In this document: piece by piece, positions 39,381 to 43,974 of the stretch
How positions within the stretch are numbered: the first letter of the stretch is position 1
How the letters are laid out: each line of letters starts with the position of its first letter
Assembly (NCBI GenBank): GCA_963749915.1
Contig: CAVVOP010000022.1
Coordinates: 192,001 to 256,000 of the forward strand
DNA length: 64,000 nucleotides
Source: an uncultured cyanobacterium
GTDB lineage: Bacteria; Cyanobacteriota; Cyanobacteriia; Cyanobacteriales; Cyanobacteriaceae
Reading direction: 5' to 3'
The notes under the pieces: model-generated
The model's database searches: none
What the model saw: the letters and a program-made list of their open reading frames with translations, nothing else
What the model was told of the DNA's origin: nothing
Made by a program: the position numbers and the translations under genes

Positions 39381-40481
39381 CTATTTACCTACCATAAAAT
39401 TAGCGTAACTTAACTCATTAATACTGTTCCATTTGACGATGGCATCTTTAAAGGCTTTCCAAGGTTCATAAATAGCCTTAAAATTAGCATCCTTAGCTGC
39501 GTTACTTTCATAGATATCTAAAGCTACTTTTTGGGCTTCAGTCATAATATCTTGAGGATAAGCCACCAATTTTGTACCCCCTTGAATAATAGTTGTTAAA
39601 GATTTTTGATTGAGGAAATTATATTGTGCTAGCATATTGAGATTCGCTTCCTTTGCCGCTGAGATAAACATATTTTGGTATTCTGAAGGCAGTTTTTCCC
39701 ACGCCAATTTATTCACTAATACATCTAGAGTCGGTCCGGGTTCCCACCATCCGGGATAATAATAATATTGTGCCGCTTTATTTAAACCCAGTTTTTGATC
39801 ATCATAAGGTCCTACCCATTCTGCCGCATCAATAGCACCCCGATCAAGCGCCAAGAAAATTTCCCCGCCGGGTAACACTTGCACATTTACCCCTAGTTTC
39901 GACATAACTTCACTCCCTAATCCAGGAATGCGCATTTTTAAGCCTTTCAAATCAGCAAGGGATTTTACCTCTTTTTTAAACCATCCCCCCATCTGTGCCC
40001 CTGTATTCCCAGCAGGAAAGTTGATAATATTAAAGTCGGCGTAAACTTTTTGCATGGCTTCTAATCCCCCCCCATGATATAACCATGCGTTTTGTTGTTC
40101 TGCCGTTAAGCCAAAAGGCACGGATGTCCCAAAAGCGAGGGCAGGGTTTTTGCCAATATAATAATAACTTGCCGTGTGTCCACACTCAACGGTGCCATTT
40201 TGTACCGTGTCTAACACTTCTAACCCCGGTACAATTTCCCCTGCGGCATAGGGAGTGACGGTGAATTTTCCGCCACTCATGGCTTTAAGGCGATCGCATA
40301 CTGTTTGTGCACCTCCAAAGATAGTATCTAAAGATTTAGGCCAACTGGTCACCATACGCCATTTGATTTCAGGGAGACTGTTAGCGGTGACGGTGGAATT
40401 ATTTTGACTTTGACAAGAGACTAAAGTGGCAGAAGTTACAGCGCTAATACCAGCACTGGTTAAAAATTGTCTTCTTTGCAT
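39381..40481 (-). CDS. TRAP transporter substrate-binding protein (DctP/TakP-like) with Tat/lipoprotein signal
   Basis: RRQFL Tat motif, lipobox LVSC, QMGGWF, LKMRIPG and AAEWVGPYDD. Confidence 0.9.
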   Translation of the reverse strand: MQRRQFLTSAGISAVTSATLVSCQSQNNSTVTANSLPEIKWRMVTSWPKSLDTIFGGAQTVCDRLKAMSGGKFTVTPYAAGEIVPGLEVLDTVQNGTVECGHTASYYYIGKNPALAFGTSVPFGLTAEQQNAWLYHGGGLEAMQKVYADFNIINFPAGNTGAQMGGWFKKEVKSLADLKGLKMRIPGLGSEVMSKLGVNVQVLPGGEIFLALDRGAIDAAEWVGPYDDQKLGLNKAAQYYYYPGWWEPGPTLDVLVNKLAWEKLPSEYQNMFISAAKEANLNMLAQYNFLNQKSLTTIIQGGTKLVAYPQDIMTEAQKVALDIYESNAAKDANFKAIYEPWKAFKDAIVKWNSINELSYANFMVGK

Positions 40482-40746
40482 TAATTTTCTTTTCTATATA
40501 TGGATAAATTTTTCTGAATTTAACTATTAATTTAACTATTTAATGTTTTTTTAAAAGACGCAAAAAAATAAGAGTTTTTTATTTTTAAGCTTATTTTCTA
40601 CTAAAAATATTCTACAGGAATTAAGGTGTGCAGTGCGTCTTTCTACATAAATTGTTAAATATTTAATTACTTATTTCTAATTACACCTCGTTCACCGATT
40701 TCAAAATTAGTTAGGAAAATTAGGTATAGTTCTGCTTCTCCTAGTA

Positions 40747-40818
40747 AATTAACGCCCAAGCTCACCGGCGGCAATCGAGCGCAGCGGAATTGCCGTCCGG
40801 TGCAGCGCCTTGTTATGT
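40747..40818 (-). other. Integron attC recombination site (72 bp)
   Basis: Minus strand reads ACATAAC-AAGGC-GCTGCACC-GGACGGCAAT..ATTGCCGCC-GGTGAGC-TTGGGC-GTTAATT. The R'', L'', L' and R' boxes and two extrahelical bases are present. It is a GC-rich island overlapping the gene's TAA stop. Confidence 0.92.
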
Positions 40819-42876
40819 GTTTTCTGCATATTTTATTGATAACTCATCTTCAAAATCGAAGGTTGTCAGAGCTTGCTTAATTCTGTCAAATTTGCCCATA
40901 TTGTCAATGTTTGCTTCAATGAAATAAGTGTCATTTATTGGAACTGCTTGTCTTAATCCCTTTTCTCTTGGATTCTTTGTCAAACTAATTCGCTCACCCA
41001 AGTCGGATGTGAAAAATGTTTCAGGTTGAAGCTCAAAAAGCTGTTTAAAGACTTCCACATAAAGTTTCGCTACTTGATTAACTTCAATTTTTTGGTCAAA
41101 GAAAATGGCATACTCCAATTTTTTATGTTTTGGATCGTCAGCTTCAAATATATTTAGTTCTCCATTGTCTCCGTTTGTTTCAATCTCTATTTGAGGGTAT
41201 TCCCATATTTTCAAGAATCGTTCTGAAATCAAGTCAAAGCGTCTTTCAATTTCTGTCTTGTCCCATTTGTCGAGGATTGAAAGGTATTTGTTAATCCATA
41301 ATCGGCTGTCTTTATATCCCGCTCCGTCTAAGTCTCTTTTATGAATAAATGGTTTATTTCCGAGTTTGCTATTATTACCCGATAAAGTCAGATTGCCAAT
41401 GGTGTTCAGATAATTTTCTTTGATAAAGATGTATTCGTCATTGCCCAATTCCATTTTCCATTTTGGGTCAGGATTCTGAGGAAAGATGTGTTCAATTGTA
41501 ATATCTGGATTTCCTTCAATGGCTACTCTCTCTCTATTTTCATAGTTCTCAAGTCTTTCAAGTAGATAAATCCTATTCTTAGATTTAATGTTGTAAACGT
41601 CTTTAACCTTTAGAGCGTCAATAACTTCTGCATTCTTTGGAAAACGCTGAACACCTGACCTTTGTAGTAATGATTTTTGAATTGAATAAAGATAATTGTC
41701 CGACTCTACTTTGTCGTAGAGGCTCATGAATATCTTGTTCAGGGCATTAGTTGGTAAACCAAGAATAAATCTTCTCCATGTAAATGACTGGATTAAGTCA
41801 AGGACTTTTAAAAAAGTGGGTTTATCAATAATTGATGAAACAAAATCATCATATACTTTCATCAGGAAAGGGAAAGCAACATTAATCTCAAGGCGGTTGA
41901 TATACTCCAATTGTAGGCGTATATCTTTGTCAGGCTCATTTTTGGGATTAATCAATTTGTTATAGTGTTTGACCAGTCCTTTTATTCCTGTCAGATTACT
42001 TTCAAGTTCGTCTATTGATGTTGTCGGGTATTTTGTTTTAAACTCAAGATACACTTTTCCCTTATTGGGTATTTTTTTGTTCTCTAAAGTCAGATAGTCA
42101 CGGATATAGTCGGAAACTCGGCTAACATTAAGAGTTTCGTCCTTTGCAAGCTTTTCAATGACTTCCCAATAGTTTTGATAAATGTTGTTTTGGTCTCTGC
42201 GGTTCAGACCCATCAAGATATAATTTCGGATTAAGTCTGCCTGAGACAATTCTAAGCCTGTTGAATTAAGGCTTTCAAAAATTCTTTGAGGATCGTCTTT
42301 TTCTCTGTCAAGTGAAATTTCAACAAACATGAGCTTTGAAAGACCTTTCAAGATGAATTGATAATTTTCTTCAGTAATTCTTCCCTTGAAGTAATTGAAG
42401 TTGTCAACGAGCTTGGAGAAATCAGGGAAATCTTCATTATCGTCACTTCTTAAAAGATATTTCAACGCCTTATCATTATTCTCAGTAGGTCTTAGTTTCA
42501 GCTTTTCTTCTTCTGGGACAAATTTGTTTATTAGGTATGTTTCGCTTATTTCATTTACAAGCTCTTCGTCTTTTAATTCTTTAGCAAGCCTGTGAAGAAC
42601 CAAGTAGATGAGTGTTAGTGTTGTCAATCTTTGTTGACCGTCAATCACCGTCAATTCTTTAATTCTTGAAGCTGTGTAAACATCATCATGAACATAAACT
42701 ATGCTACCGATAAAGTGAGCATTCATTTCGTTATTTGTGCCGACTTCAAGAATGTCGTCAAGTAGCTGTTTACATTGCCCTATTGACCAATCATAATTTC
42801 TTTGGTAAACAGGAATTACGAACTGAGTCTTATTTGATGATAAAAAGTCTTCTACTTTGGTTTCGTTTGCTTTCAA
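40813..42876 (-). CDS. GmrSD-like DUF262 + DUF1524 (HNH) putative modification-dependent restriction endonuclease, cassette-borne
   Basis: IPVYQRNYDW, VIDGQQRLTT and IFESLNSTG (DUF262); TIEHIFPQ..IGNLTL..NSKLGN (DUF1524). The TTG start at 42876 follows AGGA and lies inside the cassette boundary. Confidence 0.88.
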   Translation of the reverse strand: MKANETKVEDFLSSNKTQFVIPVYQRNYDWSIGQCKQLLDDILEVGTNNEMNAHFIGSIVYVHDDVYTASRIKELTVIDGQQRLTTLTLIYLVLHRLAKELKDEELVNEISETYLINKFVPEEEKLKLRPTENNDKALKYLLRSDDNEDFPDFSKLVDNFNYFKGRITEENYQFILKGLSKLMFVEISLDREKDDPQRIFESLNSTGLELSQADLIRNYILMGLNRRDQNNIYQNYWEVIEKLAKDETLNVSRVSDYIRDYLTLENKKIPNKGKVYLEFKTKYPTTSIDELESNLTGIKGLVKHYNKLINPKNEPDKDIRLQLEYINRLEINVAFPFLMKVYDDFVSSIIDKPTFLKVLDLIQSFTWRRFILGLPTNALNKIFMSLYDKVESDNYLYSIQKSLLQRSGVQRFPKNAEVIDALKVKDVYNIKSKNRIYLLERLENYENRERVAIEGNPDITIEHIFPQNPDPKWKMELGNDEYIFIKENYLNTIGNLTLSGNNSKLGNKPFIHKRDLDGAGYKDSRLWINKYLSILDKWDKTEIERRFDLISERFLKIWEYPQIEIETNGDNGELNIFEADDPKHKKLEYAIFFDQKIEVNQVAKLYVEVFKQLFELQPETFFTSDLGERISLTKNPREKGLRQAVPINDTYFIEANIDNMGKFDRIKQALTTFDFEDELSIKYAENT

Positions 42877-42896
42877 TTCTTTAATTCCTGTTTTCG

Positions 42897-42934
42897 ACAC
42901 ATAACTTATAATTGTACCGCAAGTGCAGTATAAC
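42897..42934 (-). other. Cassette 5' core site and attI-like region
   Basis: Minus strand GTTATAC-TGCACTTGCG-GTACAAT-TATAA-G|TTATGTGT. GTTATGTGT is the exact complement of the attC R'' end ACACATAAC. Confidence 0.65.
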
Positions 42935-43176
42935 ACTTTCAGGACTTACGCAAGAGAAAAAAAAGAAATAGCTATAACCCTTGTCAGTAGGTTTAAAGGC
43001 AAGACAGCGATCGTTATAACCTTCCATTGAGATTAGTTAATGGTAAAATTAAGGAGAAAATAGTTTTCTAATCTGATTTTAGAATATCTTTTATTTATTG
43101 TGTTAGACGGCGTTAAAAAGTTCGATGACAAACTATTATCTAATTAATTTTGAAATCGGCGAACGGGGCGTAATCA

Positions 43177-43974
43177 CTAATTATTGATCGCTTCTCTGAG
43201 ACTATGACATAATATTGCTAAATCTTTTAAGCCTTCTTCGGGGCTAGTGTTAGCTAATTTTTTGACAAAGGCACTACCAACAATTACGCCATCTGCCCCC
43301 CATTGTTTCATCTGTATTGCTTGAGAAGGTTCAGAAATGCCAAAACCAACTCCTATGGGTTTATCGGTGACGGTTTTTAACTTACTGATTAAATCTTCAA
43401 CTCGACTTTCTACCTGCAATCGCATCCCAGTAACACCAGTAACACTAACTAAATAGATAAAACCTTGAGATTTTTCAGCAATATGTTGAATTCTATCCAA
43501 GGGTGAAGTTGGTGCAACTAATAAAGTAACCTCTATACCGCATTTTTCGGCAATTTGTAAGAAAGTTTCCGCCTCCTCTAAAGGTAAATCGGGAACAACT
43601 AAACCCTTAACCCCTACATTAGCAATAGTTTTCATGAAATTTTCTACTCCCCGATAAAAAATAGGATTGTAGTAAGTAAATAAAATAATGGGAATAGTAA
43701 TTTCATCTTGAAGGTTTTTGACAATCTCAAGAACATCATTTAAACAGACACCATTTTTTAAAGCACGAGTAGCCGCTGCTTGAATTACAGGGCCATCGGC
43801 AAGAGGATCAGAATAAGGCACACCTAATTCAATCATATCTGCACCATTTTGAGCCAAAATTTTGATAGCTTTAACGGTGGTTTCTAAATCAGGATCTCCC
43901 GCGGTTATAAAAGGAATTAAAGCACATTTATTTTCTTTTTTTAGTTGTTCAAAACACTGAGAAATTGAGGTCAT
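43177..43974 (-). CDS. trpA: Tryptophan synthase alpha subunit
   Basis: [25 protein letters not shown] and GVIVGSA motifs. Confidence 0.97.

Follow-up and report, generated by a model that had tools for sequence, protein, structure and literature searches.

A putative IS1634-type mobile insertion cassette carrying an integron attI site and a GmrSD-family nuclease cassette in a cyanobacterial genome

Results

Organization of the locus

We have analyzed a window of 64,000 nucleotides (positions 192,001 to 256,000 of contig CAVVOP010000022.1) from an uncultured cyanobacterium of the family Cyanobacteriaceae. The locus is carried by contig C22 of a 34-contig draft genome; positions are those of the window unless a contig (C) is named, and G and L designate genomes and loci. 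The insert under study is flanked by the start of a gene for DctP (TRAP; 39381-40481) and the stop of trpA (43177), and ndhL, a gene that marks the host as a cyanobacterium, lies near the locus. The following features were recognized:

40678..40683, no strand: left copy of a putative 6-bp target duplication, 5/6 identical to 43171-43176 and equal to the perfect duplication of element L334
40684..40714, plus: left terminal inverted repeat, IS1634 type, 31 bp; profile rank 23, 21/31 identical to each L334 end
40715..40752, minus: 38-bp stub after attC, either the truncated start of a further cassette or partly inner-end DNA of the IS
40747..40818, minus: attC, 72 bp, with a hairpin fold and a core complementary to the first bases of the cassette
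40753..42904, minus: integron gene cassette, 2152 bp
40813..42876, minus: open frame of a GmrSD-family (DUF262 + DUF1524) type IV restriction-like nuclease, 687 aa, TTG start
42903..42937, minus: attI core of a cyanobacterial integron family, its conservation ending at the crossover and its upstream dyad missing or out of register
42940..42952, plus: short end motif of a second dispersed repeat, with no partner in the element; it truncates the upstream part of attI, including the dyad
42953..43124, plus: decayed integrase leader and promoter region, from alignment with the start of the L195 intI
43125..43139, plus: intI codons 1-5, the same five residues as in the intact L195 IntI, abutting the inner end of the right repeat
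43140..43170, minus: right terminal inverted repeat, IS1634 type, 31 bp; profile rank 8, 22/31 identical to each L334 end
43171..43176, no strand: right copy of this putative 6-bp duplication, immediately following the stop codon of trpA

The terminal repeats belong to the IS1634 family

An earlier note, made from the sequence of this stretch, had described inverted repeats of 35 bp at 40680-40714 and 43140-43174 with 31/35 identical positions, and these are confirmed. Indeed, the best pair of inverted 31-mers at least 1 kb apart matches at 27 of 31 positions, a value attained by none of 150 random 2.8-kb control stretches from the genome, whose maximum was 23. The outer 4 bp of each 35-bp arm belong to the flank, leaving true ends of 31 bp that are alike at 27 positions, and the element accordingly spans 40684-43170 (2487 bp). 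The left and right ends face inward and are each other's best match genome-wide. Between them the DDE transposase of autonomous IS1634 elements is absent, and a search for its remnants inside the element returned weak matches only (none better than E 0.004, the strongest within the nuclease ORF), which bears out the description of the insert as being without transposase.

The sole other genomic match to the ends is a degenerate copy at C11:25380 with 7 mismatches, a score that 0 of 40 shuffled queries equalled, and this copy matches the ends of a multi-copy element of the same genome whose transposase is of the IS1634 family (NF033559, 263 bits against a cut-off of 100, scored on the C9 copy). 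A profile was built from 20 ends of 10 IS1634 elements, with no window sequence included; 25 loci were examined for this, the others being without a usable pair, and L322 and L323 being omitted for their different outer ends. When 9,384,346 genome positions are ranked by this profile, the right arm of the window comes 8th and the left arm 23rd, among the IS1634-type ends of the genome. The closest element, L334 in genome G046, has ends identical to those of the insert at 21-22 of 31 positions. Also, the ends of the insert start with C, as IS1634 ends do: the accessible part of a description of the family gives ends that begin with C and AT-rich target duplications of 5-6 bp (PMC2266710), and that of a study of Microcystis presents IS1634 elements as mobile there (PMC11448079). 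Judged by this similarity, the ends of the insert are assigned to the IS1634 family. The abundant second IS1634 subfamily of the genome has different ends. An early identification of the repeat with the 3' end of intI was given up when its similarity to IS1634 ends became clear.

Solo ends of IS1634 type were observed at several places. At C11:25384-26800 (L257) such an end lies where homology with relatives breaks off, and adjoins a GC-richer two-gene insert, encoding by eye P-II-like and sterol-desaturase-like proteins; at its far end this insert has about 57 bp in common with those at C1:1759 and C19:28464. At C17:16237 and G006:C1:70930 (L274) about 31 bp resemble the parent element, and divergence follows. 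Since solo 31-bp ends occur in the genome, junctions at the inner edge of a repeat are possible without capture of DNA between two ends.

The insertion site

The TA reported at both ends is present (40682-83 and 43171-72), but not as a TA duplication, as it sits inside a putative, near-palindromic 6-bp target repeat with 5/6 identical positions. This repeat has one mismatch and is AT-rich, and a rough calculation by hand puts the chance of so good a match at about 1 in 20 such pairs. In L334 the 6-bp duplication is perfect and identical to the left flank of the insert; perfect 6-bp duplications are found in 3/10 elements of the IS1634 clade and in one copy in this genome, while 6/10 clade elements have at most two matching bases in their 6-bp flanks. 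In the second subfamily (e.g. L294) the flanks are AT-rich and alike, with a matched 6-bp duplication in 2/25 end pairs, and such scarcity suggests that copies have recombined, that the assembly has collapsed them or that the mode of insertion is unusual.

In G007, which belongs to another genus of the same family, dctP and trpA are also neighbours, with 321 bases between the aligned stretches versus 2771 here. This spacer, shorter by about 2450 bases, is too divergent to be aligned or to place the junctions. Within the genus (n = 5) the two genes lie far apart or on separate contigs, or the dctP match is weak. No exact empty site was seen, and the sequencing runs examined showed no joints across the element. 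The possibility that one arm is a native flank of trpA or dctP was rejected, as nothing similar was seen by eye at 11 loci of relatives.

The integron core

The earlier description of what lies between the repeats, in minus-strand order an attI-like site, a 2152-bp cassette, its attC and a stub, holds. The crossover of attI falls after 42905. The 35-bp motif is present in many cyanobacteria, where it is conserved exactly to the crossover and is then followed by different DNA in each genome; its consensus pattern is found in 36/401 genomes, with at most seven sites per genome, and the reversed control gave 0. For comparison 60 loci from 27 genomes were fetched, comprising 63 sites besides that of the window. 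One of these loci, L195, has attI beside a complete intI (TIGR02249, 447 bits against a cut-off of 265), and 10 further ones have a recognizable 5' piece of intI directly upstream. On this comparison the site in the window is a genuine cyanobacterial attI. The 11-bp motif that interrupts it at 42940..42952 has 15 genomic occurrences, among them two inverted pairs about 90 bp apart.

Upstream of attI, the approximately 235 bp that had been taken as non-coding are in fact an integrase leader with intI codons 1-5: the beginning of the L195 intI and the segment ~43095-43139 can be aligned with a score of 54, versus a maximum of 42 in 300 shuffles. No sigma-70-like promoter was detected in 42850-43200. 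No intact intI over the TIGR02249 cut-off was found in the 34-contig genome, the only intI remnant found there being internally deleted (C22:156921-157249). This remnant, with two internal deletions, is part of a second decayed integron at C22:153500-157249 (L258), which has a different repeat layout on the attI side and frameshifted restriction-like genes alongside.

As to the surroundings of the other sites, at L204 (G029:C214:16630-17298) two attI sites face each other about 640 bp apart, and at L195, L210, L226, L229, L236 and L249 attI lies between locus-specific direct repeats of about 50-200 bp. Such direct repeats suggest dispersal by recombination and not by transposition. None of the 63 other attI sites (27 genomes) has an inward-facing pair of IS1634 ends; inverted repeats around attI at L203 and L205 were considered and do not score as IS1634-type.

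On its bottom strand attC folds into a hairpin of -17 kcal/mol (z -2.05; 6/200 shuffles equally good). Its identity to sites on two plasmids of other phyla, from Geoalkalibacter and Citrobacter, is 91-92%, and only attC was matched in the plasmid and phage searches. BLAST detected no second copy of it in the genome. The element holds a single attC, while a CALIN is defined by at least two in the absence of intI. The stub gave no significant match to the DNA of 12 IS1634 loci.

The nuclease cassette

The cassette encodes a protein that scores above the Pfam cut-offs for both PF03235 (133 bits) and PF07510 (83 bits), also matches the PADLOC Orf5 and HEC-06 models, and has SspE and DUF262 proteins among its solved relatives; its C-terminal ~130 aa gave sub-threshold atlas matches only. 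Nucleases combining DUF262 and DUF1524 resemble GmrSD-like type IV restriction enzymes, and integrons are reservoirs of defence genes, according to the accessible text of PMC12409362. From family membership, the cargo most likely cuts modified phage DNA. The earlier note had named an anti-phage nuclease: a GmrSD-type nuclease of foreign origin it is, its anti-phage role being a likely one by family.

Among 7997 scored candidates, 5811 homologues pass E 1e-100, the best being 97% identical. Of the named genomes, those with the nearest homologues are a Clostridiales MAG (97% in protein, 94% in DNA), a Balneolaceae isolate and many Bacteroidota, whereas in six genomes of the host family the homologues are just 65-71% identical in DNA and have no attC by eye. 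With its closest homologues outside the host family, the gene has thus arrived recently from a foreign source. At the DNA level, similarity to the closest relatives ends where the ORF ends on either side, and many relatives bear a different, longer attC-like site (30/80 loci inspected). Members of the same GmrSD family occur as cassettes with such long sites at L041, L059 and L065-L074, mostly in Bacteroidota, so that one ORF family is packaged with two classes of attC.

Search for further copies and a transposase

The search with the ends, which had been proposed as a way to find further copies, other cargo and an autonomous partner, left the element as a single copy, with none of these in genomes, metagenome or viral contigs. 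At up to 3 mismatches there is no other copy of the ends in 19 genomes of the family or in 400 other genomes of the order, and no exact match in metagenome or viral contigs. A looser end pattern occurs in 13/301 genomes of the phylum, no more often than its reversed control; of 13 looser matches examined outside the host genome one, in G006, is an IS1634-type solo end, and the best-looking one, in G276, was discarded as lying inside a coding gene. A 24-bp match at C22:526846, within a Fic gene, is attributed to chance; around it, at C22:525500-528200 and adjoining glyA, lies a partly decayed, foreign-looking region of restriction and Fic genes (names given by eye). When 18 other ends in the genome were tested, no inward-facing partner lay within 5 kb of any of them.

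No cognate transposase was found; the nearest in the genome is that of C10:43567-45747, a member of the clade with an open frame of 578 aa. The ends of this clade member are only 16-18 of 31 identical to those of the insert, and for this reason the insert may now be immobile.

Sequencing runs from other samples

We have compared four runs from two studies, of 20 listed; X1, X3 and X4 come from one study and may be close to the source. X1 contains both ends and unchanged pieces of the nuclease gene, and therefore the element is not an assembly artefact. A metagenome contig of X1 (40260-40799), with a depth of 4.9 in a range (below 5) where single contigs may be errors, reads from the dctP promoter across the left end and the stub to an attC with five differences from that of the window. 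This variant suggests a different or additional cassette at the site and hints at turnover. Over trpA, run X2 differs from the window at 16 of 1676 bases; it has the right end and the intI stub, and beyond 43091 and below 42939 its sequence is unlike that of the window. That the nuclease is uncovered in X2 is no evidence of its absence, as the part of the run that was read amounts to about 37% and leaves dctP uncovered as well.

Discussion

The locus combines the features of a mobile insertion cassette, namely two IS ends, a passenger gene and no transposase, and its junctions lie 0 and 38 bp from the inner edges of the ends. We consider, with a probability of roughly 0.6, that it is an IS1634-type mobile insertion cassette with an integron core as passenger, inserted as a unit. 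The course of events would be as follows. An IntI now absent from the assembly would have placed the foreign GmrSD cassette in attI; the integron core would have come between two IS1634 ends via deletions or replacements stopping at or near their inner edges, the same deletions cutting intI after codon 5; and a cognate IS1634 transposase, provided in trans, would have inserted the unit just after the trpA stop, duplicating 6 bp. From the arrangement of the sequence we infer that the ends may well have moved the cargo. The broader proposal of a cassette-shuttling system is not warranted on present evidence, with one copy and no cognate transposase found.

A different order of events would have an IS1634 element or MITE arrive first and an integron fragment, taken up for instance by natural transformation, later replace its interior through illegitimate recombination, so that the ends never carried the cassette. 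It would fit a genome in which IS1634 relics are common and the element itself is single-copy, and integrase-less attI sites are scattered without IS1634 ends in 63/63 cases. As these sites lack IS1634 ends and several lie between locus-specific direct repeats, another route of attI dispersal exists. Yet the junctions, at most 38 bp from the inner edges and with no transposase DNA, would call for a very short resident element, and none of the 18 other ends examined in the genome proved to belong to such a short pair. We regard this sequence of events as the main alternative, though an unlikely one.

It is improbable that two whole IS1634 copies moved the integron as a composite transposon before losing all but their outer ends by deletion, a course that requires two deletions ending at the inner edges and that has left no transposase remnant. 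IS-flanked class 1 integrons are known, as the accessible part of PMC3575428 describes, and the unlike sequence in X2 would suggest, weakly, a longer leader in a related strain. Far less credible are the ends of an IS630/Tc1-mariner-type MITE with TA duplication, which the earlier note had proposed on the strength of the TA that flanks both ends: this TA belongs to the putative, near-palindromic 6-bp target, the similarity to IS1634 ends (IS1634 alone was compared directly) extends over their full length, and no other element sharing these ends was found in the genome at up to 9 mismatches. Finally, the note had allowed that solo repeats across the genome could make the pairing coincidental, and related unpaired IS1634-type ends are indeed common there, but a chance pairing of two unrelated solo ends is practically dismissed by an inward-facing, mutually best-matching pair that surpasses 150/150 control stretches.

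If the IS1634-type cassette did move as a unit, its empty form of about 335 bp (IS1634 end, intI leader, attI, stub and IS1634 end) could be a portable, reloadable dock, moved by an IS1634 transposase and loaded with cassettes, or relieved of them in exchange for others, by a visiting IntI, with neither enzyme aboard. This extension is speculative and probably does not hold. The dock might conceivably still exchange cassettes when IntI comes from elsewhere, and the sole hint of reloading is the variant attC beside the same stub in X1. If true, defence genes from other phyla would reach new chromosomal sites in this way, and many cyanobacterial attI sites without an integrase could owe their position, by one route among others, to capture between IS ends.

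Several known systems resemble the element, here compared through the accessible parts of the cited articles. MIC231 of the Bacillus cereus group, derived from IS231 (PMC6199540), likewise has two IS ends, a passenger and no transposase gene, falls in a size range of 0.7-3 kb, and would need a transposase in trans for its movement. Unlike MIC231, the element is of IS1634 type, cyanobacterial and single-copy, and its passenger is an integron dock with a cassette that is exchangeable in principle. Class 1 integrons flanked by MITEs or IMUs in Acinetobacter and Enterobacter (PMC3575428, PMC10969869) also join a defective integron to non-autonomous ends and a target repeat, here a putative one; these are resistance integrons between two whole MITEs of 288-439 bp, whereas here a bare 31-bp end on each side encloses a native cyanobacterial integron type with a defence gene. 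With the IS1634 family as described (PMC2266710) the element shares ends starting with C, whose sequence fits cyanobacterial members, and a putative 6-bp AT-rich target repeat, but it has no transposase, and its exact ends were found on no other element. Among chromosomal integrons, CALINs and single attC sites lacking intI (PMC4889954, which records integrons in Cyanobacteria) there are likewise attC-bearing cassettes without a neighbouring integrase; unlike a CALIN, the element keeps attI and five intI codons, together with one attC. A literature search, mostly short of subscription journals, found no report of IS1634 ends enclosing an integron, and none of dispersed cyanobacterial attI sites.

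The weight of the finding is moderate, given a single and probably immobile copy. The spread of integrase-distant attI sites in cyanobacteria is unexplained, and the locus offers a route, namely capture between IS1634 ends; passenger-carrying IS derivatives would thereby be extended to the IS1634 family. A defence gene from a cassette pool rich in Bacteroidota would moreover have entered a cyanobacterial chromosome via a native integron.
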